A DNA stretch of 61,769 nucleotides, counting the filler. It is 6 parts of 6 records of this genome, joined end to end, with 100 filler letters (N's around TTAATTAATTAA, not from the genome) between each part and the next. Parts side by side here need not be neighbours in the genome. Positions count along the whole stretch, not along the records: positions 31,453 to 47,531 come from SRR31156797_15394; 5 more parts are not named here. One strand, given 5' to 3'. Position 1 is the stretch's first letter, and each line of letters starts with the position of its first letter. The notes beneath the pieces are model-generated. The model worked only from the letters and a program-made list of their open reading frames with translations. It ran no database searches and had not been told where the DNA came from. The translations under genes and the position numbers were made by a program. Of this stretch, positions 11,892-54,679 are shown in pieces.

Positions 11892-11991
11892 NNNNNNNNN
11901 NNNNNNNNNNNNNNNNNNNNNNNNNNNNNNNNNNNTTAATTAATTAANNNNNNNNNNNNNNNNNNNNNNNNNNNNNNNNNNNNNNNNNNNN
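11892..11991. other. Artificial contig spacer
   Basis: 100 nt of N with central TTAATTAATTAA (stops in six frames); composition changes across it. Confidence 0.98.
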
Positions 11992-21308: not shown

Positions 21309-21408
21309 NNNNNNNNNNNNNNNNNNNNNNNNNNNNNNNNNNNNNNNNNNNNTTAATTAATTAANNNNNNNNNNNNNNNNNNNNNNNNNNNNNNNNNNNN
21401 NNNNNNNN
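21309..21408. other. Artificial contig spacer
   Basis: N run with TTAATTAATTAA. Confidence 0.98.
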
Positions 21409-31352: not shown

Positions 31353-31452
31353 NNNNNNNNNNNNNNNNNNNNNNNNNNNNNNNNNNNNNNNNNNNNTTAA
31401 TTAATTAANNNNNNNNNNNNNNNNNNNNNNNNNNNNNNNNNNNNNNNNNNNN
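31353..31452. other. Artificial contig spacer
   Basis: N run with TTAATTAATTAA. Confidence 0.98.
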
Positions 31453-31857
31453 TTTAAGACCCGCAAACAGTCTGGATGGTTGATGAATATTCAGTCCGTT
31501 CCAGCCCATGTGCGGGACGGAAAGATCGGTGGAGAATCGTTGTACGCCTCCTTGGATGAACCCCAACCCCGGCATGTCCGGGGCTTCTTCGCTTTTTTCA
31601 AACAAGGCCTGGAGTCCCAGGCAGATCCCTAAGAAAGGACGATCGGCTTCAAGATAGGCCGATAGCGGTTTGACGAAATTTTTCCGGTTCAGGATTTCCA
31701 TCATGTTGCCGAAGGCGCCGACCCCTGGGAAGACCAGCTTTTCGGCGGAAAGGATATCATTTTCCGTATTAACCAGATGAACTTTTTCACCGAGGCTTTC
31801 GATGGCATTGATGACGCTTCTGACATTTCCGGCGCCGTAATCCAGCAACGTGATCAT
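31453..31857 (-). CDS. hisH: Imidazole glycerol phosphate synthase glutaminase domain (HisH or fused HisHF; 3' truncated)
   Basis: LDYGAGNVRS, FPGVGAF, GICLGLQ, VPHMGWN; start re-set to 31857 (GAGG RBS). Confidence 0.9.
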
Positions 31858-32015
31858 GTGTTGTTCCTCGTAAAGGGGGCAGAGTGCAGGGGGCAGCTGC
31901 CTTTTCTGCACCCTGACAACTGCACCCTGCAAACTTTTTGGGGGTTGCCTAATCGTAAGGGTTTGGGTTATACAAAATGCAGCTTTGAATGTAAAGTTTC
32001 GAAAGGATAGCCCAT

Positions 32016-32783
32016 ATGCGTGTCACCACTATTCAGATGGAAATTAAGGACGGGCCCAAGGAAGAAAATCTTGAAACCGCATTGGATCTGCTGGACCGGG
32101 CGCCCGAAAGCGAGTTGATCCTCTTGCCTGAGTTGTGGCCATGCGGGTATTTTTCATTCCATCGGTACCGGAGCGACAGTGAGACCATTGATGGTCCCAC
32201 GGTGTCCGCTTTCAGGGAAAAGGGTTCAGATCTGGGGATCCATATCCTGATGGGGAGTCTGGTGCTGCGGGAAGGTGAGAACTTGTTTAACGCGGCCCTT
32301 CTTCTGGGACCGGATGGCGGGGTTATGGCCCAATATCGAAAAATTCATCTTTTTGGGTACCAGTCGGATGAGCGGAAATTGTTGACCCCTGGTGAAAAGC
32401 CGGTGGTCGTGGATTTGCCCTGGGGTAAATTCGGGATTACCACCTGCTATGACTTGCGTTTTCCGGAGCTCTACAGATTGATGGTGGATCAGGGAGCCTG
32501 GTTTTTCCTGGTCCCTTCGGCATGGCCCCTGGCGCGGCTGGATGCCTGGAGACTGTTCAACCGTGCAAGGGCACACGAAAACCTCTCTTATCTTTTTTCC
32601 TGTAATTGCGCTGGAACAAATGACGGCAAACCCTTTGCCGGTCACAGCATGATCGTTGACCCCGGTGGAGAGGTGCTGGCTGAAGGCGGGGAAGGGGCAT
32701 GTTATGTTTCAGCCGAAATTGATCCCGGCCGGGTCCATACGGTGCGTAACGAATTTTCCGCGCTCAATGATCGCGTATTCTGA
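32016..32783 (+). CDS. Carbon-nitrogen (nitrilase-family) hydrolase
   Basis: LPELW, YRKIHLF, TCYDLRFPE catalytic triad motifs. Confidence 0.92.
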   Translation: MRVTTIQMEIKDGPKEENLETALDLLDRAPESELILLPELWPCGYFSFHRYRSDSETIDGPTVSAFREKGSDLGIHILMGSLVLREGENLFNAALLLGPDGGVMAQYRKIHLFGYQSDERKLLTPGEKPVVVDLPWGKFGITTCYDLRFPELYRLMVDQGAWFFLVPSAWPLARLDAWRLFNRARAHENLSYLFSCNCAGTNDGKPFAGHSMIVDPGGEVLAEGGEGACYVSAEIDPGRVHTVRNEFSALNDRVF

Positions 32784-32817
32784 TGATTGCGGGTTTTCTT
32801 ATATAAGGGGTATTTTT

Positions 32818-34032
32818 ATGGGCCGAGCCTATGATATCGGTTTGAAAGAGGCGCTTTCCTTGACCCTCGGTGCCATCGGAACATTGAAGCCGGTGCCGGT
32901 ACCTGTTCATGAGGGGTGTGGTTATGTGGCATCGGAGGATCTAATGGCGGTGGTGGATTGCCCATCGGTTACGTCTTCTTTGCGGGACGGCTATGCGGTG
33001 ATTTCAACCGATATCGAAAAAGCCTCCCGGGGAAAGGGTATTCCGCTCACGGTTGCCGGTACTCTGGCTGCGGGGGATACCTCCTTGAAGACCGTCCGGC
33101 CGGGCGAAACCATTCAGGTACTGACCGGCGCCATGATTCCAAGAGGCGCGGATGCCGTTGTGTCCGTTGAATTCACGGAACTTCAGGGCGACAGGGTCGT
33201 CTGCTATCGGGATGCGCCGTCCGGATGCAATCTTTTATTCCAGGGGAGCGACGTGGCGGCCCATGGCCTGATTGCAAACCGGGGGCAGCTGCTGACACCC
33301 GCGCTGACGGGCCTTCTGGCTGCCGGTGGCCTGGACCGGGTGAAGGTATTCCCATCCCCCCGTGTTGCCGTTGTGGCCACCGGCGATGAGGTGGTTGCTC
33401 CCGGAATCTCCCTTAAGCCGGGTCAGCTGTATGCCAGCAACATCGTAACCCTCTATTCGTGGTTGCGTCGTTTCGGAATGCCGGGAGAAATCGCTGTTGT
33501 TCGGGATGATCCCCATGAACTTAAAAAAACCTTCCAGGATCTCCTTTCAAAAAACGATGCTCTCCTGACCAGCGGTGGCGCATGGAAAAGCGAACGGGAC
33601 TTGACCACCCGGATACTGGATGAAATGGGTTGGGAGATGTTTTTTCACCGGGTTCGGATCGGTCCGGGAAAGGCTGTGGCCCTTGGGATCCTGGATGGCA
33701 AACCCATTTTCTGCCTTCCCGGCGGCCCCCCCTCCAATGAGATGGCATTTTTGCAGATTGCGCTCCCCGGGCTTCTCCGGATGGCGGGAAAACCGACCGC
33801 ACCTTTTCCTCTTAAAAAAGTACGGTTGGCGGAGGAGGTGAGCGGGGATGTCACATGGACCCAGTTTTTTCAGGCAACCCTTGAAAAAAGGGGAGGGGCG
33901 TGGTGGGGAATCCCGCACCGCATGAAGAGCCGGATTCAGTCCCAGGCCCGGGCCCAGGCCCTGATTAAAATTCCTGAAGGTGTGGAATGTGTGGCGATGG
34001 GAGATATTATTGAGGTTCAGACGCTTATATAA
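32818..34032 (+). CDS. moeA: Molybdopterin molybdotransferase (start re-set to ATG 32818)
   Basis: RDGYAV, TGAMIPRGADAV, ATGDE, TSGG, PGK, CLPGGP. Confidence 0.88.
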   Translation: MGRAYDIGLKEALSLTLGAIGTLKPVPVPVHEGCGYVASEDLMAVVDCPSVTSSLRDGYAVISTDIEKASRGKGIPLTVAGTLAAGDTSLKTVRPGETIQVLTGAMIPRGADAVVSVEFTELQGDRVVCYRDAPSGCNLLFQGSDVAAHGLIANRGQLLTPALTGLLAAGGLDRVKVFPSPRVAVVATGDEVVAPGISLKPGQLYASNIVTLYSWLRRFGMPGEIAVVRDDPHELKKTFQDLLSKNDALLTSGGAWKSERDLTTRILDEMGWEMFFHRVRIGPGKAVALGILDGKPIFCLPGGPPSNEMAFLQIALPGLLRMAGKPTAPFPLKKVRLAEEVSGDVTWTQFFQATLEKRGGAWWGIPHRMKSRIQSQARAQALIKIPEGVECVAMGDIIEVQTLI

Positions 34033-34049
34033 AAAGGTACTAACATAAC

Positions 34050-35084
34050 ATGAATACTGAAAATGAAATATCAGCCAACCTGGAAACCGGCTTGATACAG
34101 GTTTATACAAGCCCTTCAAAAAGGACCAATTATGCACCCTTTGGCCTGGCCCTCCGAGCATCCGGCCAGGGGTTTCGGACACTTATCATCCGTTTTACCC
34201 CCCATGATCTCATGAAGGGCGAAAAACAGGCATGTCGATCACTTGCGCCAAACCTGGTCATAGACGCTTCAGCCCTGGATGGGTTTGATCCAAAAGAGGG
34301 GTTGGCGGCGGAAAAGGCAAGGGATTCTTTCCGGAAAGCCAGGGCTGCCGCCATTTCCGGCGCCTTTGACCTGGTGGTCCTGGAAGGGGTTCTGGCGCCG
34401 GTTTCAACCGGCCTGATTCCGTTGAAGGAGATCCTTGGACTGATTGGGGAAAAAGCGGCCCATGTGGAGTTGATCCTTACCGGGCCTGAAGCTGCCAAAG
34501 AGATCATTGAAGAAGCGGATTTGGTGACGGAAATGGCGGTGCGCACCCTGTCCCACCGTAAAAATCAAGAACCCATCGAAGTGGTGACCGGCAAAGGAAA
34601 GGGGAAAACAACCTATTGCCTGGGAAAAGCCATGCTCATGAGCAGTATGGATGTGCCCTCTTTTATTCTTCAGGTGGTCAAGTCGCCCAAACCCTATGGA
34701 GAGATTATGGCCATTGAAAATTTGCCCGGGCTTGAGATTGAGACCATGGGAAAAGGGTTTGTGAACAAGGAAAATCCCGATGCGGACCCCAGCCATTGGG
34801 AAGCGGCCAGGGAAGCGTGGGAGCGGGGGAAAGAGATTATATTCTCCTCCCGCTACAAACTGGTGGTGTTGGATGAAATCAACATCGCCGTCAATTATGG
34901 TTTCATCCACCCTGATGAGGTGCAAGACCTGCTTTCAAAAAAGCCGAAGGGGGTGCATCTCATGCTGAGCGGGCGTTACGCAAAGACCGATGTGATGGAA
35001 CTGGCAACGGTTGTCATGGAAATGAAAGAGATTAAGCACCCCTTTAAGAAGGGCGTCGGCGCAAGAAGGGGGATCGAATACTGA
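34050..35084 (+). CDS. cobO: Tandem-duplicated CobA/CobO/BtuR corrinoid adenosyltransferase
   Basis: Two repeats: GLIQVYT..LILTG..ADLVTEM and TGKGKGKTT..LDEIN..LSGR..KHPF..GIEY. Confidence 0.85.
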   Translation: MNTENEISANLETGLIQVYTSPSKRTNYAPFGLALRASGQGFRTLIIRFTPHDLMKGEKQACRSLAPNLVIDASALDGFDPKEGLAAEKARDSFRKARAAAISGAFDLVVLEGVLAPVSTGLIPLKEILGLIGEKAAHVELILTGPEAAKEIIEEADLVTEMAVRTLSHRKNQEPIEVVTGKGKGKTTYCLGKAMLMSSMDVPSFILQVVKSPKPYGEIMAIENLPGLEIETMGKGFVNKENPDADPSHWEAAREAWERGKEIIFSSRYKLVVLDEINIAVNYGFIHPDEVQDLLSKKPKGVHLMLSGRYAKTDVMELATVVMEMKEIKHPFKKGVGARRGIEY

Positions 35085-35090
35085 TTTTTC

Positions 35091-36689
35091 ATGAGCGGGG
35101 CCAAATCGACCGAAATGAACTATAACCGTGTCGCGGGAACGGATGTTTATTTAAGCGCTGTGGGATTCGGCACCTGCCAACTGCGGCTTGTCCCGAAGCG
35201 GCAGGCGCTCAAGACCTTGAAGCGGGGGTTTCATCTGGGGGTCAACTGGGTGCACACGGCGCCTGATTATGACGGGACCCAGAATCTGGTGGCAAGGGCC
35301 GTCCGGGAATATGGAAAAGATGTGGTGATGCTTTCTCAAGGGTACGGGGACATGGCCCACTTTGAGTACCTTTTTGAGAACACATGTCGGATATTGGGCA
35401 AAAGCCGGCTGGAAATGTTCGGTATTGCCTGTATCGATGACCGGGAGTATCTGGGGGAAGATGTGTGGGGACCCACCGGTATGGTGGCGTACCTTGAGAA
35501 GAAAAAGGCGGAGGGCCGGTTGGGCGGCATTTTTTGCAGTACCCACGGGACCGCCGAATATATATCCCGTTTGATTCTTTCCGGCCGTTTCGATGCGGTG
35601 ATGATGGCCTACAATCTTCTTGGATTTCATCTCCTTTCATATTGTCCCACGGATCACAAAAAAGTTGAGAATATTCCCGAAAACGAACGTGTGATTTTCC
35701 CTCTTGCCGCAAAAGAGGGGGTCAGCCTGCTGATCATGAAACCGCTGGCAGGGGGACTTGTTACAAACAGTGCGGCTTTTCCACCCCACCATTCATTTTT
35801 CAACCCTTCAGAGCCGGTTTCAGCCACCGATCAACTGCGGTCCATATTGAAAAACCCTTCGGTCTGCGCCGTGGTTCCGGGGACCGCTTCCGTGGCGGAG
35901 GCGGAAGAAAACGCCCGTGCCGGGCACGGGCGTGGAAAGGCCGGAGTGAAATCGGATTCCCGAATCCCGGATGCCTTAAAGGCGCTTCAAAAAGGGCTTT
36001 GCCGTCGTTGCGGAGAATGCGAGACCCTTTGCAGCCGAAACCTTCCCGTTTCCTGGCTGTTTCGCGATGCCTACATTTCCCACTATCCATCGGAAACCTT
36101 TGAAACCATAGATGCCTTGCAGTACTTTCGCATCCATCCATGGCACAGGGCCCGGTGCAAATCCTGTAATGACAGAACCTGCCGTTGCCCGCACGGCATT
36201 GATATCCCCACCGCATTGGGTCATGTACACGAAAGGATGCTGACGCTGCGGGCTGAAAAACGGCTCCCCCTTGATGCCGAGGACCCGGCCAACCTGAGGC
36301 AAGGGTCATTTTCCGTGCGAATTCTTCGAACGGAAATCCCCCGGTCCATCCGTTCGGGGGAACGAAAAATTTGTCGGATTTTTTTGATGAATACCGGGGA
36401 ACTCGACTGGCCTTCACCTTCCGAAAATCGGACTGGCAGTCATGTGGCCTTATCTCTTTTTGTGGATGGAAAACCATGGAAAAAGGTCCCCTTGAGGCGG
36501 AATGTACCCCCGGGGGACCGGACCCATATTGTCTTTAACCTTAAAGGGCCTATCCGTTGCGGTCTGCATCGTCTTCAATTCCATCTGGCACATGAAGGGA
36601 AATCATCCGTTGTCAAGGCCCGGACCTTTTTATTGGATTCAGAGCTGGAAGTCTTAAAGGGCGGTGTATTTACATTGTTTCGATCATAA
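35091..36689 (+). CDS. Divergent aldo/keto-reductase-fold protein with Cys clusters and a C-terminal Ig-like (NBR1/FW-like) domain
   Basis: GFGT, MKPLAGG, VPGTASVAEAEEN; CRRCGEC...C and CKSC...CRCP; C-terminal NTG..W...VPPG..F. Confidence 0.75.
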   Translation: MSGAKSTEMNYNRVAGTDVYLSAVGFGTCQLRLVPKRQALKTLKRGFHLGVNWVHTAPDYDGTQNLVARAVREYGKDVVMLSQGYGDMAHFEYLFENTCRILGKSRLEMFGIACIDDREYLGEDVWGPTGMVAYLEKKKAEGRLGGIFCSTHGTAEYISRLILSGRFDAVMMAYNLLGFHLLSYCPTDHKKVENIPENERVIFPLAAKEGVSLLIMKPLAGGLVTNSAAFPPHHSFFNPSEPVSATDQLRSILKNPSVCAVVPGTASVAEAEENARAGHGRGKAGVKSDSRIPDALKALQKGLCRRCGECETLCSRNLPVSWLFRDAYISHYPSETFETIDALQYFRIHPWHRARCKSCNDRTCRCPHGIDIPTALGHVHERMLTLRAEKRLPLDAEDPANLRQGSFSVRILRTEIPRSIRSGERKICRIFLMNTGELDWPSPSENRTGSHVALSLFVDGKPWKKVPLRRNVPPGDRTHIVFNLKGPIRCGLHRLQFHLAHEGKSSVVKARTFLLDSELEVLKGGVFTLFRS

Positions 36690-36712
36690 AACGTCTTGAA
36701 TCAGAAGAACCC

Positions 36713-38452
36713 ATGAACCAGTATCGGACCCTACGGCGTCGAATCAAAAATCAAATATCCAGGGTTTCATCCGCGGTCGGCTTTAGAAAAGAACCCCCCG
36801 GGGACGTCAGGCATTACGGAGTTGTTTATGTCAACCATAACATTCCCCATCAATTGCGGGCGGGGAGTATTTATGGGGCCAGGATTACCTTGGAAAACAG
36901 TGGGGATTTTGCCTGGTGCCGGGATGATCCCAAGGGGAATCGTATCGATTTGGTATTGAGGTTCGGTGACCGGGTGGCCGGAACCTATCAGATGCCGAGA
37001 AGTATGGTAAATCCGGGCGAGCGGGTGATTCTTTCTTTTCCCTTAATGGTCCCCCTTGAGGAGGGACCGCACCCGGTGTCGCTGGAACTGGTGGCGCAGG
37101 GCATCGCATGGTTCAGTGACCAAGGGGTGTCGCCGCTGGCCATGACATTGATTTCCGATTCCTCCAATCATTTTTCATCCCATGACCCCCGTGTGGTTTC
37201 CAGAACCGTGAACCCGTGGCATTACCGGCCCACCGGGGGGATTGAGCAAAGCAGCGAGGGGATGAGCTTCCCCCTGTTCGTATCCAACGCCAAAGGATGT
37301 TATTTGTGGGATCAGGAGGGGCGCCCATATATTGACTATATCATGGCCTGGGGCAGTACCATACTGGGCTACGCGGATGATCGGATCCAGGAGGCCATCG
37401 GAGATGTTCTTGAAATGCCGCCGTTGACGCCTTTTCCAGGTTATCTGGAAATGGATGTGGCGCGGATGTTGACGGAAGATATCCCTTGCGCTGAAATGGT
37501 GGTTTTCGGTAAAAACGGTTCCGATGTCTGTACTGTTGCGGCAAGACTGGCGAGGCTTTTTACCGGAAAACGGGTTATTCTTTGCAGTGGCTATCATGGG
37601 TGGCAGGATTTCTGGGTTGAGGCGGACGGCTTTGGTGTAACGGGGGTTCCGGAGAGACCCGAACCGCTTATTCATCGATTCCGTTTTAATGACAGGGCGG
37701 ATTTTTTCTTTTATTTTAACCTTTTTAAGGGAGATCTGGCCGCCGTCATGCTTGAGCCTTCAGGGCCCGGGGAAAGCATACAGGGTCCCGAGCAGGATGC
37801 GGATAAGGATTTCCTGGCAACCATTGCCGAAGCGACGCGGTCCGTTGGGGCACTCCTGGTCTTCGACGAGATTATTACGGGGTATCGATATCCGTCCGGC
37901 AGCGTTCAGAAAGCAACGGGAATTGTGCCGGATCTCGCCTGCCTGGGAAAAGCCATCGGTTCGGGAATGCCGTTGGCCGCGCTCGTGGGAAGGCGTCATA
38001 TTTTCGAGCAATGCATGGAACGGACCCATTATGGTCCAACCTTCAAGGGTGAAGTCTATTCCTTTGCCGCGGCCAAAGCCGCCATTGGGATTTACCGATC
38101 CGAACCGGTAGCCGAGGCGGTCTGGGATTATGGAACAAAACTGAAAAAAGAGATCAACACCCTTTGCGCCCTGACCGGGGTGAATGCCGCCTGTAAAGGT
38201 CCGCCCTTTCGAATGGCGCTCATATTCCATGAAGCGGACGTGGATCGGTTGAGGTTAAAGCGGACCCTCTATATCCAGGAGCTTCTAAAACAGGGCGTCA
38301 CCACCTATAACGGCATTATGCTGCCGTCATACGCCCACGACGGGGAGGTCATGGGAAAGACCCTTGAAGCCATGGGGGAAACCCTGGAACGCGTGGCTTA
38401 CGCCGATGGGCAAAACAATTTCGAGCGTTATCTGGAAATTCCCGTTTTGTAG
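36713..38452 (+). CDS. Class III (GSA-aminomutase-like) PLP aminotransferase with N-terminal Ig-like domain
   Basis: KNGSD, GYHGW, FDEIITGYR, LGKAIG (PLP Lys); N-terminal NSG..W...VNPG..F. Confidence 0.85.
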   Translation: MNQYRTLRRRIKNQISRVSSAVGFRKEPPGDVRHYGVVYVNHNIPHQLRAGSIYGARITLENSGDFAWCRDDPKGNRIDLVLRFGDRVAGTYQMPRSMVNPGERVILSFPLMVPLEEGPHPVSLELVAQGIAWFSDQGVSPLAMTLISDSSNHFSSHDPRVVSRTVNPWHYRPTGGIEQSSEGMSFPLFVSNAKGCYLWDQEGRPYIDYIMAWGSTILGYADDRIQEAIGDVLEMPPLTPFPGYLEMDVARMLTEDIPCAEMVVFGKNGSDVCTVAARLARLFTGKRVILCSGYHGWQDFWVEADGFGVTGVPERPEPLIHRFRFNDRADFFFYFNLFKGDLAAVMLEPSGPGESIQGPEQDADKDFLATIAEATRSVGALLVFDEIITGYRYPSGSVQKATGIVPDLACLGKAIGSGMPLAALVGRRHIFEQCMERTHYGPTFKGEVYSFAAAKAAIGIYRSEPVAEAVWDYGTKLKKEINTLCALTGVNAACKGPPFRMALIFHEADVDRLRLKRTLYIQELLKQGVTTYNGIMLPSYAHDGEVMGKTLEAMGETLERVAYADGQNNFERYLEIPVL

Positions 38453-38470
38453 CGGATTGGGGGATTATCT

Positions 38471-40399
38471 TCAAACTTTCCGGTGGGCTTCCACAAAGCG
38501 GCCCACCTGCTCCTGCAACATCTGGAAATGTTTGGGATTCCGTACATCGTTGTTTCGGCATAAATCACAAACTTTGCAGATGCCGGGCTTGTGCTGGGCT
38601 TCCCGCAGAAGATTCAAAACCGGGTGTTGCCAGAGTTTTAAAAAACCTTTTTCGTCCTGAAACCGGAAAGCGGTTCGCCTCGACAGGTCTGCGCTGGAAA
38701 GGGGGCCGATACACGGATAAATAAAATGGGTTTCATGGGGGGTGTGGCCGGTATTATTGGTGCTGCCGATGGCGGCATAACGCCATAGGAAATGACAGAA
38801 GCTTCCTTCGGGGTCGTCAAATTTCAAACCCGTTAGAAAACGCCCCAAGGGCCATTCATTGCTCTCGATTTGAGCAAAATCATAAAAACTTCTCGCCGGC
38901 ATTCCGAAAGATGATCCCGAACCGGAATCGGGTGCCGGAATTTCCAGTGTAACCCGGTTTTGTTCAGCAGCTTTGACGGTTTTCTCATAGAGAGGTTCGT
39001 ATAGAGCCATACAGGCTGCAAGGGTATGGTCCGGTCCGAACTTTGCGGGGTCATGGGAGCTCAGTGCGAAAAAGGGGAAAATGGTCAGTCGGTCTATGCC
39101 CAGTCGACGGCAAAGTTCAGGCATCCTGGGCAGGTCGGATAGGTTCTCACGGTTCAGCACCATGGAGCCCATGGTCAGGGGCATTAGATTCCTGTGTTCT
39201 CTTTTGGCTGAATGAAGGCGGGACAGATTCCGGCAAATCCGGTCAAATCCGTCCATGTGGCATTGTACCGCATATGATTCGGAAGACGCGGCATTCAGGG
39301 ATATGTTAATCCAGTTCACATTTCCCACAATGGCATCCAGCAATCCGTTTCGGTTCAAAGCGATGCCGTTGGTGAAAAAGCCCATTTGAAGGTGTGGAAA
39401 AGTTTTTGAAATGAAACGGATGATTTCGGACAAGTGGGGATTGAAGGAAGGTTCACCCAGTCCGCTTGAGAGACGGAGCGTCTGTGCATGGCGAAGATAG
39501 GTCATCTTTTCAATCTGTTCAGGCAGAACGCAATGGGGTCTGGCGATGCTTGGTTCATAACCGCAGAACCGACAGTTGATATTGCATTTACCCATGGTGG
39601 AAAGATGGATCTCGGGTGGAAAGGCTTGCGGAAAGGTCGAACCTTTGCGATATTCGATTTCATTGACCATTGCGTTAAATACCCATGGGACGGCGGACCG
39701 GTCCCTCTGTTTCAACAGTGCGTGGGTCATATCATGGGCCCCTTCACACCCGGCGCTTTCGGCGACGGGTTTGGAGATAATTTCCATGAAGGCCGTGTTC
39801 AGAAAGCGGGGATCGAAAGCGGTTGGTCGGCGTTTGGCGGTGGGAATATTTTCCATTGCCGGTGAATGATCCATGCCGGCGGCATTGGGTGTGATAAAAT
39901 CATTCCCGAAGCTGTGGGATTGCCCGGGATCGGTCCGGGAAAGGCTTTCGTCCGAGCAGTCGGTCAGCCGCAACAAAGCCCCGCCAAGCCGGTCAAGGGG
40001 AGGGACCATGCCGGTTTTTCGCAGGAAACCTTTAACACGGAATGCCATGGCATGAACGGAGTTGCTGCCGGCCTGTCCGGACCAGGCCCATTGGCCCTGT
40101 CCGGCACTTTTAATCAGTTGCTCAATGGGAGGCGCGTCCGAGACCAGAAACCCCACATTCATGAACAGGTGGGTTCCCCGTTGATAAAAAACGCCGGTGT
40201 TCAAGGGCTTTCCCGTATGGAGATGGATACATTCTCCGGAGCGCCTGATGACCCCGATCGGCTGTACCGGCAGACGGACAAAGCCTTCCGCCTGCCGGAT
40301 GGCGGCGGCCACCAGTTGGCGGGAGCAAGATGACAATTGATGAGGCCCGTACCCGTGAGATACGGGAATCACAAGGTAGTATTTCAGTCTGCAGAACAT
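38471..40399 (-). CDS. Radical SAM protein with long N-terminal extension and SPASM-like C-terminus
   Basis: CNINCRFC, GLGEP, FTNG; C-terminal FCHFLW...YPC...CKVCDLC; start position uncertain. Confidence 0.8.
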   Translation of the reverse strand: MFCRLKYYLVIPVSHGYGPHQLSSCSRQLVAAAIRQAEGFVRLPVQPIGVIRRSGECIHLHTGKPLNTGVFYQRGTHLFMNVGFLVSDAPPIEQLIKSAGQGQWAWSGQAGSNSVHAMAFRVKGFLRKTGMVPPLDRLGGALLRLTDCSDESLSRTDPGQSHSFGNDFITPNAAGMDHSPAMENIPTAKRRPTAFDPRFLNTAFMEIISKPVAESAGCEGAHDMTHALLKQRDRSAVPWVFNAMVNEIEYRKGSTFPQAFPPEIHLSTMGKCNINCRFCGYEPSIARPHCVLPEQIEKMTYLRHAQTLRLSSGLGEPSFNPHLSEIIRFISKTFPHLQMGFFTNGIALNRNGLLDAIVGNVNWINISLNAASSESYAVQCHMDGFDRICRNLSRLHSAKREHRNLMPLTMGSMVLNRENLSDLPRMPELCRRLGIDRLTIFPFFALSSHDPAKFGPDHTLAACMALYEPLYEKTVKAAEQNRVTLEIPAPDSGSGSSFGMPARSFYDFAQIESNEWPLGRFLTGLKFDDPEGSFCHFLWRYAAIGSTNNTGHTPHETHFIYPCIGPLSSADLSRRTAFRFQDEKGFLKLWQHPVLNLLREAQHKPGICKVCDLCRNNDVRNPKHFQMLQEQVGRFVEAHRKV

Positions 40400-40532
40400 T
40401 TGCGCACCTGGGGGTTATTATTTTATGGAAGGGCTTCGGGATGGCCGTTCAATCTATTCTGCGCTTCTTTGTTCCGTTTGTAAATGTTGATTTTGCCGGA
40501 AGCGGCACATTAAGATGAAAGGGAGGGGAAAA

Positions 40533-42185
40533 ATGAAATTTAATGAAATCGACAGGCTTTCTTGTGATGTGCTGGTGATCGGCGGTGGCGGCGCCGGTCT
40601 GAGGGCGGCCATTGAAGCGAGACATGCGGGCGCCGACGTGCTCCTGGTTTCGAAAGCAAAGGTGGGATACGCCAATAACACCTATATTGCCAAGGCGATT
40701 ATAGCCGCTTCCGGATGGGGCGATCCGCGTGACGGGGGGCGGGTTCACCTGGAGGATACGGTTAAGGGCGGACGTTTTTTAAATGATCCGGAACTGGTAA
40801 TGGCCATGGTGGAGGAGGCAAAAGCCGAGATATCCTTTCTGGAAAAATGCGGAGTGGCTTTTGCAAAAAAAGAGGGGTGTTTCGAAACCGAGCATATCGC
40901 CGGGCACCGTTTTCCCAGACACGTTCGAGGTCAACATCGAACCGGAAGCGATCTGATCCTGCCGTTAAAGCGGTATGCGGAAAAGATCGGTGTAAGATTT
41001 GTCCATCGGGTCTTTATCACCCGTCTTTTTTCGTCCGGCGATCGCGTTGCAGCGGCTTCAGGGGTTTCCCATGATGGACGATTCCTGGTTTTCAGAGCCG
41101 GGAGTGTGATTCTGGCCACCGGCGGTTTCGGACAGGTGTATCTGCATACAAACAATGCCGCGGGAATTACCGGTGACGGCCAGGCCCTGGCACTTCATTT
41201 AGGCCTTCCACTAAAAGACATGGAGTTTGTTCAATTTTATCCCACGGCCACGGGCAGGTTGGGGAATCGGCTCATTCTTTCCGAGATCCTGGTTATGGTT
41301 GAAGGCGCACGCCTCAAGAACAGCGTGGGCGAAGATATTGTTTTGAAGCACGGATTCAAAGATCCCATGCAACTGACGCGGGACCGACTGGCCCAGGCCA
41401 TCATGCGTGAGCTTCTGGCGGGTCATGACGTGGATGGCGGGGTTATTATGGATCTCAGCCCCATTGCTGAAGAAAGATTGGCCCCATTGGCTTCTCTGCT
41501 GCCGTCCACATGGCATACCGATCAGAAAACCCTGATCGTCTCCCCCACGACCCATTTCTGCATGGGCGGTATCATGATTGATAAAAATGCGGAAACACCC
41601 CTTGCGGGCCTTTTTGCCGCGGGAGAGACAACCGCGGGTCTCCATGGTGCAAACCGCCTGGGGGGCAACGCCCTGTGCGAGGTTTTTACTTTTGGGGGCA
41701 TTGCGGGAAAAAAGGCTGCCGCCGGGGCGGAAGAGATGGGGCCTGTGAAAGCACCCGGTGAAATGATCGAACATGAAAAAGTCCGTTTGGAGTCCAGGTT
41801 CAGAGGAAATGGATCAGATTCAAATGTTTTAGGGAAATCCCTCAAGGAGATTATGTGGTTTAAGGCCGGTATTCTACGTGACCCGGAAGGTCTTAGCGAG
41901 GCCCTTGATGCAATTTCGCATATCCGGTCTGAAGCTGTGGACGCACCCATAGGGAAAATTTCCGATCTTATCCGATGGCTTGAGCTTGAAAATATGCTGC
42001 TCCTCTCGGAAACGGTTTGCCGGGCGGCCTTATTGCGGACCGAGAGCAGGGGATCGCACTACCGCACCGATTACCCGGAGGAGGATAATGCTCACTGGCT
42101 CAATAATATCGTGGCCAGGAAGGAGGAAACCGGAATCACCCTTGAGATGGTCCCCAATCTGAAATCCATATCTTTGGTGAAATAG
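40533..42185 (+). CDS. Stand-alone SdhA/FrdA/NadB-family flavoprotein
   Basis: GGGGAG, LATGG, TGDG, MEFVQFYPT, HFCMGG, GLHGANRLGGNAL, RTESRGSHYRTDYP. Confidence 0.88.
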   Translation: MKFNEIDRLSCDVLVIGGGGAGLRAAIEARHAGADVLLVSKAKVGYANNTYIAKAIIAASGWGDPRDGGRVHLEDTVKGGRFLNDPELVMAMVEEAKAEISFLEKCGVAFAKKEGCFETEHIAGHRFPRHVRGQHRTGSDLILPLKRYAEKIGVRFVHRVFITRLFSSGDRVAAASGVSHDGRFLVFRAGSVILATGGFGQVYLHTNNAAGITGDGQALALHLGLPLKDMEFVQFYPTATGRLGNRLILSEILVMVEGARLKNSVGEDIVLKHGFKDPMQLTRDRLAQAIMRELLAGHDVDGGVIMDLSPIAEERLAPLASLLPSTWHTDQKTLIVSPTTHFCMGGIMIDKNAETPLAGLFAAGETTAGLHGANRLGGNALCEVFTFGGIAGKKAAAGAEEMGPVKAPGEMIEHEKVRLESRFRGNGSDSNVLGKSLKEIMWFKAGILRDPEGLSEALDAISHIRSEAVDAPIGKISDLIRWLELENMLLLSETVCRAALLRTESRGSHYRTDYPEEDNAHWLNNIVARKEETGITLEMVPNLKSISLVK

Positions 42186-42200
42186 CCCCCCCTCACTAAT

Positions 42201-42704
42201 TTAAAGGAAGGGCATCTCCTTCAGTTTTTTCTCCCAGAAAGCCTTGTCCTTCTCTCGCCAATTGGGCCCCGTGAAATGGGAATCGTAGTAGCCGCCGAGC
42301 CTTTCAAGGCATTTAAGCCAGACATTTTTCTTCTTCTCCCCCGCTTCGATGATATCCGCCACGAATAGATCTATGTTTTCGATTTCGTCCTTGGGTGCGT
42401 AGTAAGACGCCCCTTTTTCCGCGGATTGTTTCAGATTTTTCTCGGAAAGCGCATGGGCCGTGAGCATCAGGGCCGGGATTTTCCGTTGGTTGGCGATTTC
42501 CAGAAGATTAAAGCCGTCTACTCCCATGATATCCAGAATCGCCACATCATATTCGTTTTCTTCCATCAACCGCTTCCCCTCATCGAAGGACCGGGCCGTA
42601 TCGATTCGGCAGATATCCAGGAGTTCCACCAGAATATCAAGCACATCCTGCTCATCGTCTACGATGAGAATCTGTTTTCTCTCAATGGTTTTTTTAATAT
42701 CCAT
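42201..42704 (-). CDS. Receiver-domain response regulator with short C-terminal extension (start re-set to 42704)
   Basis: ILIVDDE, ILDIMG, MLTAH, APK. Confidence 0.85.
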   Translation of the reverse strand: MDIKKTIERKQILIVDDEQDVLDILVELLDICRIDTARSFDEGKRLMEENEYDVAILDIMGVDGFNLLEIANQRKIPALMLTAHALSEKNLKQSAEKGASYYAPKDEIENIDLFVADIIEAGEKKKNVWLKCLERLGGYYDSHFTGPNWREKDKAFWEKKLKEMPFL

Positions 42705-42863
42705 TTTCCCTTTGTCTCCTTTCCGTCCAAAGTATTGTGAATGCCGATCAACTTTTGAAGGATATGGACAGCATGCAATTAAAATTATCTCCGCTCGAAC
42801 CGTACAATTTCGGCTGCTGTTAGTCAAGAATAGTATCCATGGAATTGTTAAGGAGATAAAGGC

Positions 42864-42893
42864 TTGACAAAAACCGCAGACTCTCCCTACCAT
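42864..42893 (+). promoter_or_regulatory. Putative sigma70 promoter of hgcAB
   Basis: TTGACA-N18-TACCAT about 100 nt upstream of ATG 42997. Confidence 0.5.
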
Positions 42894-42996
42894 ATTGAAA
42901 ACCGATGGAGCAGCGAAAAAACCCGGATATCCGAAACTCTTACCATAAATGATATCAATACCATGGCATGTCCGAGCAAGGGAGGAGCCTTTAAAT

Positions 42997-44154
42997 ATGA
43001 ATCAAGATACCTTTGTAATGCTCAAAACAGTCGATTCCGAACCCGTTCAATCCGCTACAACGGCTTGCTGACCCAAGGGTGGAAAGGCTCAGTTGAGCCC
43101 GCCCTGTATGGACCAGCCATTTGTTGTAGGTTCCCTTGAGAGCAAGGTGGGGCGTGTCCCCCGGGTTTCTTCCGCCTTAACGTGGGATGATCGCTTCGGA
43201 AGCATCAAGGCCCGGTGGGGGGTGGGCCGCATGCAGTTCACCGTTGATCCCGGATTGTATGTTCTCGGAAATCCCCATGACGGGAGCCGGGTATTTGTGA
43301 CCGCTAATTATAAGATGAGTTTTGACCGGTTACGTGAGGCGCTCACGGGCCGTGATGCATGGATACTGGTACTGAACACCAACGGCATCAATGTCTGGTG
43401 TGCCGCGGGAAAGAAAACATTCGGCACGGATGAACTGGTCAGCCGTATTGCGTCCAGTGGTTTGGCGCGGATCGTGACCCATCGGGAATTGATTCTGCCC
43501 CAATTGTCAGGGCCGGGGATTGCGGCTCACCGGGTAAAAAAGCTTTCCGGCTTTAAGGTCATTTATGGTCCCATCGAGTCAACCCATCTGCCGCTCTTTA
43601 TGGATGCAGGATGTAAGGCAACACCAAAGATGCGGAAAAAAACCTTTGCCATAAGGGAAAGAACGGTATTGATTCCGGTCGAGCTGGTGGGCACCCTCAA
43701 ATGGAGCCTTCTCATATTGCCATGCCTCTTTTTATTGGGAGGTTTGGCAGGAGATGGCGGATTCCGGGCCGGAACCATGCATTACGGCCTTTTTGCAGTG
43801 GTTGCTTTTCTTTGCGCCATCGCATCGGGCGCGGTTCTGACACCCATTTTGCTGCCTTGGTTGCCGGGGCGGGCTTTCTCCTTCAAGGGTCTGGTCATGG
43901 GGATCATAACGGCCGTATGGGTCGCGGCTTTTTGGCCGGGTGATTTCAATGAATGGGCGGGCCGGGCGGAAATTTTCGCATGGTTTTTTCTGATTCCGGC
44001 CATTTCGTCTTATCTGGCCATGAATTTTACCGGTGCCTCCACCTATACCTCCCTTTCGGGGGTCAGAAAAGAGATGGAGTGGGCGCTGCCCCTGGAAATT
44101 GTCGGTGGCGGCATCGGTTTGATTTTATGGGTGCTTTCGCTTATTGTGAATTAA
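42997..44154 (+). CDS. hgcA: Mercury methylation corrinoid protein HgcA, probably 385 aa with selenocysteine at codon 25 (TGA 43069-43071)
   Basis: Cap helix NVWCAAGK, TANYKMSFD, C-terminal TM domain with NFTGASTYTSLSGV; GGAGGA RBS before in-frame ATG 42997. Gene identity is secure; the extended start is less certain. Confidence 0.95.
43077..43104 (+). promoter_or_regulatory. Putative bacterial SECIS element
   Basis: GGGTG-gaaa-GGCTC-AGTT-GAGCC-CGCCC hairpin; apical loop begins 19 nt after the TGA and has G at loop position 2. Confidence 0.75.
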
Positions 44155-44166
44155 GGGGTTTGTGAA

Positions 44167-44496
44167 ATGGAAAAATTCGTGTATCTAGCGGGTGTGACGA
44201 CCTTAGCCCTCGACGAGGAGAAATGTGTCGGATGCGGCATGTGCCTGACAGTTTGTCCCCAGGCGGTTCTTGCCATGAATAACGGGCATGCCAGGATCGA
44301 AAACCGGGACCGGTGCATGGAGTGCGGGGCCTGTTCCCAAAACTGTCCCACGGAGGCCGTGACCGTTCAGGCGGGGGTTGGGTGTGCCGCGGCTGTTATT
44401 AATTCGGCTTTGGGCCGCGACGGATCATCTTGTTGCTGCGTCATTGAAACCGATGACGGTGCAGGGGGTGGGAATGGCGGTTCCGGGTGCTGTTAA
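44167..44496 (+). CDS. hgcB: Mercury methylation ferredoxin HgcB
   Basis: CVGCGMCLTVCP, CMECGACSQNCP, GVGCA, C-terminal cysteines; directly downstream of hgcA. Confidence 0.95.
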   Translation: MEKFVYLAGVTTLALDEEKCVGCGMCLTVCPQAVLAMNNGHARIENRDRCMECGACSQNCPTEAVTVQAGVGCAAAVINSALGRDGSSCCCVIETDDGAGGGNGGSGCC

Positions 44497-47474
44497 GTAT
44501 TGGATTCAAGGTGAGGGATTGCCAGCAACTCAATGAGCTCCTCTCTGCTGAAGCTTTTCATGACGGCAGGATCGCTTTCCTCAATGACGCTGTCCATCAG
44601 GTTTCGTTTTTTTAAAATAAGGGCGGCGATTTTTTCCTCCAGGGTCCCTTCCGTTACCAGTTTGAAGACCTGTACGCCCCTTTTCTGGCCGATCCGGTGC
44701 ACGCGATCGGTGGCCTGATCCTCTTTTGCGGCATTCCACCAGCGATCGTAGTGGATGACCACAGAGGCCGACACCAGGTCGATGCCCACCCCTCCGGCCT
44801 TAAGGCTGCCCACGAATACGCGACAGTCGGGATCATGGTTGAACCGTTGAATGATTTTTTCCCGTTTTACGGTTTTTCCGGTAAGGGATACGAAATCAAT
44901 TCCCGTTTCGGTGAGGTACTTTTCCATGATGCTGATCATGCCCAGGAACTGGCTGTAAATTACCACCTTCTGGCCGCTTTGGAGGCTTTCTTCAAGGAGT
45001 TCCCGGAATAAATCCCATTTTCCGGATTGAAGACTTTGGTAATCGTCTATTTTGCCTTGCACCAGGGTCGGGTGGTTGCAAATCTGTTTCAGCAGGTTGA
45101 GGAGGGAAAAGATGTGGATATAGGGGATGGTTTTTTTTTCCTGCCTCAGGTTTTCAAGGAGTTCATTCCCTTTGTGGGAAACCGCGTCACGATAGAGTTT
45201 CACCTGATCTTCCGAAAGGGTGCAGGTCCGGATATCTTCGATTTTAGGCGGAAGGTCATTCAATACGCTTTCTTTTTTGCGACGTAGGGTAAAGGGTGAA
45301 ATAAGGTTGGAAAGCTGCCCCTTCCTTTCTTCATCTTTTTGGTTTTCAATGGGTTTCACATAGCGGTTTTCAAAATCCGTATCCTTTCCCATGTATCCGG
45401 GCAGGGCCAGGTCCATGAGGGCTTTCAGTTCTCCCAGGCGGTTTTCGATGGGGGTTCCGGTAAGCCCCAGTTTCATGCGGGCATGGATCCTTTTGGCGGA
45501 CTGATAGAGTTGCGTCTGCGTGTTTTTCAGGTTCTGTATTTCATCAAACACCGCCACCGAAAAATTCAATGTTTCCAATGATGCGATATCGCGCCTGAGG
45601 ATGCCGTAGGAGGTCAGGAGGAGGGGATGGCCGCTCAGGGCCCCGTCCAGGTCCCTTTGTTTTCCATGATAGATGATGGGATCGAGGGCCGGGGCATATC
45701 GGCGGACGATATGATTCCAATGGCTTAAAACCGTTGTGGGGCATACCACGAGAAAAGGTTCAGGGGCGGTTTCCCGTTCCATCAACCCCGCCATGAAGGC
45801 CATGACTTCGTGTGTTTTCCCGAGGCCCATGTCGTCACAGAGCAGACCGCCAAAACCGTTTTCATATAAAAAATGGATCCATTCCACCCCCGCTTCCTGA
45901 TAGTTTCGCAGGATCGAAAAGAGCCCCGCCGGATTATGAAAAGGTATGGCCGGCTTGAGGGCGAGCATCTTTTTGAGCAGACCGGCCGATTCGTCCCGGC
46001 CTTCAATCTCCAGAGGTTTACGGTTCCGGGTCTGCAGGCGGAAAAGGTCCAGGCGGGAGATCCGGACACTGTCCACCGGGCCTGAATGATTTTCGGTTCG
46101 AATATCCTCCGCCATGTCTTCGAGCCCCTGAAACGCTTCCGAAGCACAATCGATCCAGCCGGCCTCGCTACGGATATACCGTTGTCCGGCATTACGGGTG
46201 TTCAGTATTTCAGCGAGAGAAATCTTTTGGTTTCCGAAACCGTAATGGACGGAAAGCCAGTACCAGTTGCGGTCCATGGCTTCGGGCATGATTTCCATGC
46301 GATCAAATTGTTTCAGTATCTGAAGGTCTTTGACGGTTTCATCCACCACGAATGGACCGTCTTTGAGATCGTCTTCATATTCCTCCAGAAATATGGGCAC
46401 CTGGGATTTCTTGAGGACCATTTTTACCGGGGCCTGGAATTTTCTGGGTTGTTCCGACATTTCCAACTGTGCCATGATCCCCATTTCTTTGATATAGACC
46501 AACGATCCGTAGGTAAATTTTTTGAGGTCTTTGTTTTCAAAAAACTTTTCTTCCCCGTTTTCCTGGATCAACCGGATCTGTGGTCTTATTTCCAGGTCCA
46601 GTTCCGTATTTTGGGTGATCTTAAAAATGGACTTCAAGGGGATGGGATGAATGGCCAGAGCATGCTGATTGGGTAGATGGTCCTGCAAGGTTGAAAGCAG
46701 GTTTTTGACATTGTTTCGGGGGATGAACAATCGGATCAGAGGTTTGCCGTCAGGTGAGAGGCAGGAAACCGTGAAAGTTCCGGTTTTTTTCGAAATGGCC
46801 GGTTTAAAGGTGCACCGGTTTTGTTCAGGACCAACCTCCCCGAATTCCCGGTGGCAGTGGTAGGCACATTTGAACCAGAAACTTTCCTCAAGGACCTGTT
46901 TTCGGGTTTTAAATCCTTGAGCGTTCATGTTCTTTTCATTGTCGGTGCGCGTGATGTCGGAAAGACGTGATAGGGCCCATCCACGGTGTGGAATGATTTC
47001 ATCGGGAATGGTTGATGTACAGCGTTCCACAAAACGGACCCGATCGGTGTGGTCTGAAAAATAGTGCAGCAGGATTTGGCCGTCTGAATCCGTGACCTTG
47101 AGAAAATGTCGATTACCGCTTTTCCGGGTTCGAAAGTGCACCGTCCCCCGGACCCCACCGGATGATTCCCTCAGGGTTACCGCCAGGCGATACCAGATGC
47201 CGGCGCGAAAGCGATCTTCAAAAGACCTTTGACCGGATTTATGCTTCATGGCCTTGAAGTCCTTTGTGAGTTGTTTCAGGTGTGGACAGGTCCTTTTGTC
47301 GGACAGGGTGCAGGTGCAGAAACGCTGGGTGAGTTGGAAATCATCTCCCGGAACGAAAAACGCAACCCCCGGCCGTTTATCCAAAGGTTCCGGCATCAGG
47401 GCCACACCTTGACGAAAGAATTCAATTTGATGAATGTGGGGTTCCGCAAAGTCTTGAGTCGTTTTATTTTTCAT
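44493..47474 (-). CDS. SWIM-finger SNF2-family helicase
   Basis: CTC...CPH SWIM-like; DDMGLGKT, DEIQ, TGTPIEN, QATDRVHRIGQ. Confidence 0.92.
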   Translation of the reverse strand: MKNKTTQDFAEPHIHQIEFFRQGVALMPEPLDKRPGVAFFVPGDDFQLTQRFCTCTLSDKRTCPHLKQLTKDFKAMKHKSGQRSFEDRFRAGIWYRLAVTLRESSGGVRGTVHFRTRKSGNRHFLKVTDSDGQILLHYFSDHTDRVRFVERCTSTIPDEIIPHRGWALSRLSDITRTDNEKNMNAQGFKTRKQVLEESFWFKCAYHCHREFGEVGPEQNRCTFKPAISKKTGTFTVSCLSPDGKPLIRLFIPRNNVKNLLSTLQDHLPNQHALAIHPIPLKSIFKITQNTELDLEIRPQIRLIQENGEEKFFENKDLKKFTYGSLVYIKEMGIMAQLEMSEQPRKFQAPVKMVLKKSQVPIFLEEYEDDLKDGPFVVDETVKDLQILKQFDRMEIMPEAMDRNWYWLSVHYGFGNQKISLAEILNTRNAGQRYIRSEAGWIDCASEAFQGLEDMAEDIRTENHSGPVDSVRISRLDLFRLQTRNRKPLEIEGRDESAGLLKKMLALKPAIPFHNPAGLFSILRNYQEAGVEWIHFLYENGFGGLLCDDMGLGKTHEVMAFMAGLMERETAPEPFLVVCPTTVLSHWNHIVRRYAPALDPIIYHGKQRDLDGALSGHPLLLTSYGILRRDIASLETLNFSVAVFDEIQNLKNTQTQLYQSAKRIHARMKLGLTGTPIENRLGELKALMDLALPGYMGKDTDFENRYVKPIENQKDEERKGQLSNLISPFTLRRKKESVLNDLPPKIEDIRTCTLSEDQVKLYRDAVSHKGNELLENLRQEKKTIPYIHIFSLLNLLKQICNHPTLVQGKIDDYQSLQSGKWDLFRELLEESLQSGQKVVIYSQFLGMISIMEKYLTETGIDFVSLTGKTVKREKIIQRFNHDPDCRVFVGSLKAGGVGIDLVSASVVIHYDRWWNAAKEDQATDRVHRIGQKRGVQVFKLVTEGTLEEKIAALILKKRNLMDSVIEESDPAVMKSFSREELIELLAIPHLESNT

Positions 47475-47531
47475 TAATGGGTTTCTCGCATCAATTTTTT
47501 TTCAATGTGTGATCGTAATCCTATTGTTGAT

Positions 47532-47631
47532 NNNNNNNNNNNNNNNNNNNNNNNNNNNNNNNNNNNNNNNNNNNNTTAATTAATTAANNNNNNNNNNNNN
47601 NNNNNNNNNNNNNNNNNNNNNNNNNNNNNNN
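47532..47631. other. Artificial contig spacer
   Basis: N run with TTAATTAATTAA. Confidence 0.98.
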
Positions 47632-54579: not shown

Positions 54580-54679
54580 NNNNNNNNNNNNNNNNNNNNN
54601 NNNNNNNNNNNNNNNNNNNNNNNTTAATTAATTAANNNNNNNNNNNNNNNNNNNNNNNNNNNNNNNNNNNNNNNNNNNN
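54580..54679. other. Artificial contig spacer
   Basis: N run with TTAATTAATTAA. Confidence 0.98.

Follow-up and report, generated by a model that had tools for sequence, protein, structure and literature searches.

A predicted selenocysteine codon and its conserved SECIS hairpin in the 5' extension of an hgcA gene from a Desulfobacteraceae-type clade

Introduction

HgcA and HgcB form a textbook pair of proteins. Haft and Gwadz (bioRxiv 10.1101/2022.07.06.499078, 2022; J Bacteriol 2023) described most HgcA proteins as selenoproteins with an N-terminal CU motif, and in the main text of the preprint the sequence PCUGP is perfectly conserved in the 20 proteins examined; the preprint passages that deal with SECIS elements give none for HgcA, the server searches having failed. 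A 2026 review (PMC13188914) lists HgcA as NF040863 with the motif CU. SECIS elements of bacterial selenoproteins lie 16-37 nt downstream of the UGA, with a G in the loop. Recombinant HgcA of Pseudodesulfovibrio mercurii ND132, a 37-kDa protein in the Cys93 numbering, methylates Hg in E. coli lysate (PMC11588087); as we infer, the purified protein appears to have been without the N-terminal arm. In the literature searched, which lay largely outside the subscription journals, no experiment that tests the Sec arm was found.

The hgcA gene described here resembles the Sec-HgcA genes of Haft and Gwadz in having a single in-frame UGA after a Cys codon in a 5' extension and in having homologues with CC at that site, and its 385-aa product falls inside the 363-400 aa that they reported. 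An earlier reading of this DNA from the sequence alone had taken the CU-motif extension to be a published trait of some HgcA proteins, and was right to do so: Sec-HgcA here is an already published trait of the family. What we add is modest, namely an xCUP motif that appears to run across a Desulfobacteraceae/Syntrophales-type clade and a putative SECIS element supported by covariation.

The hgcAB locus and its surroundings

The window, i.e., the whole stretch of DNA analyzed, is 61,769 nucleotides long and consists of six contigs joined by N spacers; the five spacers, around TTAATTAATTAA, lie at 11892-11991, 21309-21408, 31353-31452, 47532-47631, and 54580-54679. GC content, taken in 2-kb windows, runs from ~38% to 65% across the contigs. 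Because the six contigs need not share one organism, the context of hgcA is limited to the contig on which it lies, 31453-47531. A contig from a public run, which may itself be where this DNA came from, covers 42500-44600 with 0 differences at a depth of 37, which is agreement at the level of contigs and not independent read support; sequencing runs holding a small share of the locus represent relatives. No RNA run holding the hgcA locus was found among the public sequencing runs matched, no tRNA was detected in the window by ARAGORN, and no Rfam family reached its gathering score there.

The full-length, 385-aa selenoprotein form of hgcA (with Sec at residue 25, U25) occupies 42997..44154 on the plus strand and scores 456.2 bits against NF040863 (cut-off 275), the match spanning positions 1-323 of the 325 in the model. 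Only 12 nt downstream lies hgcB (44167..44496, plus strand; NF040864, 119 bits versus a cut-off of 99), which is predicted to encode a 2[4Fe-4S] ferredoxin ending in Cys-Cys. As judged by these model matches, the gene is a true hgcA with hgcB behind it. No in-frame TGA is present in hgcB, and the window copy thus contains no Sec.

The predicted protein has much in common with its ND132 counterpart as described in PMC11588087: a cap-helix Cys ligand, C-terminal membrane helices, and an adjacent hgcB. The cap helix, NVWCAAGK, comprises residues 132-139 (43390..43413, plus strand), and Cys135, the predicted cobalt ligand, is equivalent to Cys93 of ND132 HgcA, whose role is described in the same paper. 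The corrinoid-binding domain covers residues 81-204, and the C-terminal transmembrane domain, residues 219-384, consists of five long hydrophobic helices in the AlphaFold2 model. The former is homologous to the gamma subunit of the corrinoid iron-sulfur protein, AcsC/CdhE (PDB 2h9a, 4c1n, and 4djd), and to the HgcAB-like fusion NF043039, but scores far below the respective cut-offs (59 of 306 and 184 of 285); no PDB match covered either the arm or the membrane domain. HgcB, like that of ND132, has two CxxCxxCxxxCP motifs and a terminal Cys-Cys, whereas its Cys-rich tail is longer than the ND132 tail described in that paper. The longer tail contains a CCC in addition to the terminal CC and is conserved in most relatives of the clade.

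Closest to this locus, at 82-83% identity, is that of a Desulfobacteraceae MAG, which shares the response regulator, flavoprotein, and SNF2 genes near hgcA. A gene for a stand-alone receiver domain (42201-42700, minus strand) diverges from hgcA and is kept in L001, L004, and L007, and an SNF2 helicase gene (44493-47474, minus strand) converges on hgcB and is kept in L001 and L029; neither arsR nor hgcC was found between the SNF2 helicase gene and hgcA. A sigma-70-like promoter, TTGACA-18 nt-TACCAT, with 10/12 matches to the consensus, is a candidate for driving hgcA (42864..42893, plus strand); its hexamers are kept in the closest relative, L001, and are not evident in the other 11 aligned loci. 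The hgcA contig also carries, 8 kb upstream of hgcA, a gene for a two-domain ATP:corrinoid adenosyltransferase (PF02572; 34044-35084). It stops at a TGA, no SECIS follows that TGA, and an aldo-keto reductase gene begins in the same frame two codons further on.

Start site and reading frame

ORF callers picked TTG (43093..43095, plus strand) as the start of hgcA. The sequence-only reading had instead proposed ATG 42997, behind a GGAGGA ribosome-binding site and exactly 32 codons upstream of, and in frame with, that TTG, and these coordinates were confirmed. The Shine-Dalgarno sequence GGGAGGAG lies at 42980..42987 (plus strand) with its GGAGGA core at 42981-42986, and its predicted duplex energy, -11.0 kcal/mol, is the strongest among six candidate starts in the window; that of the SD-like sequence before TTG 43093 is -6.9 kcal/mol. 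Both the Shine-Dalgarno sequence and the ATG align in most of the nearest relatives. Translation reproduced the protein proposed earlier, identically: TGC TGA at 43066..43071 (plus strand) would be the codons for Cys24 and Sec25, 107 codons before the cap-helix Asn132, and TGA 43069-43071 is the sole in-frame stop before TAA 44152-44154. We conclude from the sequence that hgcA almost certainly starts 32 codons before the gene-caller start, with one UGA read as Sec.

The 32-codon N-terminal extension (42997..43092, plus strand), missed by gene callers, is predicted to be flexible. In an AlphaFold2 model with U modelled as C, residues 1-31 have pLDDT < 50 and the fold begins with a first strand at residue 43; the cap helix, modelled free of its cofactor, also has low pLDDT, and low pLDDT is therefore not proof of disorder. 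The extension peptide is conserved among close relatives (M..MLKTVD..Q), and, where the alignment is clean, indels are multiples of three. Differences among 10 loci numbered 57, 33, and 68 at codon positions 1, 2, and 3, a weak bias that was not counted as support. The window protein also has an extra Cys, C37 (43105-43107), just after the SECIS; it occurs in 0/63 TGA relatives, which have S, R, D, N, G, or I there.

Conservation of the Sec codon

Conservation was followed in a close set made up of the best 80 of the 588 GTDB loci found. In 63/80 of these an in-frame TGA precedes the cap helix by 106-107 codons, and in 55 of the 63 it follows a Cys codon; a sense codon occupies the Sec site in 16/80, four of which (4/16) have Cys, and TAA or TAG is found there in none of the 80. 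The remaining locus, L035, has both the TGA and the hairpin but a frameshift further downstream and was counted apart from the 63; the frameshift (L035:3031-3140) is near a run of 7 G and is probably an assembly error. The frame upstream of the TGA is open for at least 16 codons in 63/63 loci, the next upstream stops being mixed (TAA 27, TGA 22, and TAG 14) and all lying at least 17 codons away. With the window included and L035 left out, all 64 TGA loci have a start codon in this upstream open frame; the Shine-Dalgarno energy of the upstream start is -4 kcal/mol or lower in 54/64, and in 45/64 the upstream start outscores every downstream candidate.

The motif around the Sec codon differs from that in the preprint. 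The window has ACUPK, PCUGP occurs in 0/65 TGA loci of the clade, and Pro directly follows Sec in 51/65; the comparison is with the preprint main text, and its supplements or the journal version may include xCUP. The distance from the TGA to the cap helix, 107 codons in the window, is within the 107-111 codons of PCUGP loci. ACUPK and PCUGP, at homologous positions, are read as the products of motif drift in a family defined by CU. The Cys before the TGA is itself lost in 8/63 loci (L022 R, L036 Q, L037 G, L041 G, L045 S, L069 L, L070 S, and L071 T), and in seven of these eight Cys-less loci the hairpin is complete; the CU pair may be less important than Sec itself.

One locus without the TGA, L007 (3079-3126), has TCA (Ser) in its place, an intact SECIS, and selA, selB, selC, and selD in its genome, and is sister to the TGA-bearing L004; this is likely a very recent loss of Sec or a sequence error. 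The hairpin is also kept without a TGA in L064.

Sec-insertion genes were found in close relatives. Among the genomes of 80 relatives, selA exceeded its cut-off in 72, and selB was found in 36/44 genomes searched, tRNA-Sec in 15/20 (scores of at least 70 bits), and selD, with one internal TGA of its own, in 5/5. Matches to tRNA-Sec below 70 bits were left uncounted because 5/14 genomes passed the cut-off with the control as well. Each of the nearest relatives, G001-G003, has selA, selB, selC, and selD, and one or more other Sec components are present in all six TGA genomes that lack selA. As selA does not separate genomes with the TGA from those without it (58/64 TGA-locus genomes versus 14/16 non-TGA genomes), the machinery makes recoding possible but says no more. 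In each of G008, G014, G031, and G038, selB was matched twice above its cut-off.

The SECIS hairpin

A two-stem hairpin at 43077..43104 (plus strand) had been proposed as a bacterial SECIS. It is present, and its loop, AGTT at 43091-43094, begins 19 nt after the TGA and has G as its second base, but only the upper stem-loop, GGCTC-AGTT-GAGCC at 43086-43099, is conserved, the lower stem being absent from the consensus structure of relatives. Compared with the bSECIS consensus in the Fig. 2A legend of PMC13188914 (loop of 4 nt, upper stem of 5 bp, G2 then G/U, 19 nt, MFE below -7.5), the window hairpin shows no difference apart from a lower stem that varies across relatives, it conforms to all four published constraints, and the consensus match claimed earlier stands. 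The 39 nt after the TGA (43072-43110) have an MFE of -16.7 kcal/mol and a z of -2.9.

A looser, MFE-based test was passed by 308/2270 TGA triplets in the window, and the hairpin alone is thus weak evidence; conservation decides. Under a stricter definition (a 4-nt loop with G2, 5 pairs, and an offset of 16 or 19), which was set after the conserved hairpin was known, the hairpin exceeds what chance would give: 10/2257 window TGA triplets passed, 43069 among them. The other nine strict matches have no plausible coding context. Nor was a second Sec candidate found on the hgcA contig, where 19 TGA sites lie between open frames and only 43069 passes the hairpin test.

Across the relatives, the complete hairpin (5 pairs, 4-nt loop, and G2) is found in 63/65 TGA loci versus 2/16 non-TGA loci (Fisher p 7e-12, uncorrected for the kinship of the loci), and the loop G is invariant in 65/65 TGA loci. 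In an alignment of 64 sequences, 99% of cells are paired, compared with 30-59% in slid controls. Double changes (G-C to A-U and U-A to C-G) occur in 3/5 pairs; the number of covarying pairs alone is not significant, being reached in 28/500 shuffles, but there are 10 double-change cells versus 1.4 in shuffled alignments (0/500). The hairpin also constrains codon choice: with kinship uncorrected, its Ala codon is GCT in 54/58 sequences versus 407/2345 elsewhere, and its Gln codon is CAG in 57/57 versus 260/414 elsewhere. On these codon counts, synonymous sites within the hairpin are to be regarded as frozen.

Possible initiation at the loop codon or termination at the UGA

TTG 43093 was earlier thought to be buried in the loop; it does overlap the loop but straddles it and the 3' stem, has its own SD-like sequence, and is a possible secondary start. 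The Sec codon could then be mainly a selenium gate on expression, or the gene could give two isoforms, the long Sec form and, when selenium is short, a 353-aa Sec-free form from the loop TTG. Either would add to recoding, and we consider them unlikely. In favor, 56/64 TGA loci versus 3/16 non-TGA loci have TTG or GTG as the loop codon, the SD-like sequences before it have a median energy of -4.4 versus -2.5 for internal TTG/GTG codons (-5 or lower in 48% versus 15%), and the short form would retain the whole folded domain, its first strand being modelled at residue 43. However, the bSECIS consensus, G[G/U], itself calls for T or G at loop position 3, and the near-invariant GG of the stem forms part of the SD-like signal; the loop codon and the signal may thus be there because both follow from the SECIS itself. 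Furthermore, GCG or GAG occupies the loop codon in 8/64 TGA loci, in the window base pairing takes in the G of TTG and some of its SD, the SD of the upstream ATG is the stronger (median -6.2), and p-values are overstated because the loci are kin. A specific version, in which the SECIS doubles as a start so that without selenium ribosomes would stop at the UGA and restart at TTG/GTG in the unfolded loop to give the Sec-free form, is a shade less likely again. If it were true, selenium supply would switch the HgcA isoform and set the methylation rate, in a clade with many gains or losses of Sec (at least nine forced changes).

Database searches gave 120 protein homologues, of which 118 had a scorable cap helix; 110 of these start after the Sec site and only eight reach it, in keeping with the earlier prediction that gene callers would miss the extension, and the loop codon itself is the annotated start in 58 of the 110. 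Read literally, these annotations, with the SD-like sequence of TTG, would make the TGA a real stop that ends a 24-aa leader peptide, HgcA being translated from TTG 43093 or ATG 43108 and the hairpin serving as a translational control element. This is very improbable. Downstream annotations are the expected output of callers that stop at TGA, the stop is always TGA (63/63), homologues without an interruption have Cys at the aligned position, and loss of the TGA goes with decay of the hairpin. The residue at the site in the eight full-length proteins is Cys in six and Arg in two, so the alignment of TGA with Cys that was called for earlier was found both here and in the 4/16 non-TGA loci noted above.

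Sequencing error, recent nonsense mutation, and a genome-wide code in which TGA is Trp or Gly are scarcely credible as explanations of this TGA: support for it in the window is at the contig level only, but all three are refuted by conservation, the same TGA occurring in 63 other species-level genomes and aligning with Cys rather than Trp or Gly, and on the hgcA contig a TGA ends the corrinoid adenosyltransferase exactly at the end of the Pfam model (172 of 172).

A possible role for the Cys-Sec arm

We are thus left with recoding of UGA 25 as Sec, of which we are nearly sure; comparison among loci shows the recoding signal, the start site, and the family alike. The proposal of HgcA as a selenoprotein is supported by conservation of the TGA, the Cys/Sec pairing, a covarying SECIS that tracks the TGA, and the Sec machinery of relatives. 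Translation would begin at ATG 42997, and, by the established SelB mechanism, SelB on the SECIS loop would bring Sec-tRNA to UGA 25. The product would be the 385-aa HgcA, with Cys-Sec on a flexible arm; in the model, ~17 residues separate the pair from the folded corrinoid-binding domain. These two residues would form a putative high-affinity soft-metal site, which could take Hg(II) from thiol carriers and, together with the terminal Cys-Cys of HgcB, pass it towards methyl-cob(III)alamin. A role in capturing Hg is favored because the affinity of selenolates for Hg(II) exceeds that of thiolates; given recoding, we put its chances at about even. Overall, Sec recoding of this HgcA is the best explanation, and a highly likely one, with capture or hand-over of Hg(II) as the favored role of its Cys-Sec arm.

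The selenium-dependent Hg handling implied earlier is at most a suggestion. Many HgcA proteins have Cys-Cys, or neither residue, in place of the motif, and the ND132 protein, apparently armless, methylates Hg; the arm is therefore probably not essential and would tune efficiency. HgcA biochemistry seems to have used the short form, and the selenium-bearing arm could be a missing Hg(II)-binding site, which would provide a cellular link between the supply of selenium and methylmercury production. A link between selenium and methylmercury was already argued in 2022/2023. The covariation-supported SECIS could improve the annotation of hgcA.

Sec in the wider HgcA family

HgcA exceeded its cut-off in 91/301 genomes of the phylum. 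A quick tree was made from 145 core sequences, leaving out L035 (frameshift), L019 (short), and four duplicates; on it 16 changes of the Sec state are required, of which well-supported branches force at least nine, gains and losses not being separable on an unrooted tree. The wider set comprised 66 loci outside the close set (70 were fetched, and four duplicates were left out). The TGA calls in L128, L131, and L144 (3/30 in the phylum sample) were dropped as ordinary upstream stops. A credible TGA is present 105-117 codons before the cap helix in 27/66 wider loci, and eight of these 27 have PCUGP, at 107-111 codons. The TGA is absent from 36/66, and 24 of those 36 have CC in that region.
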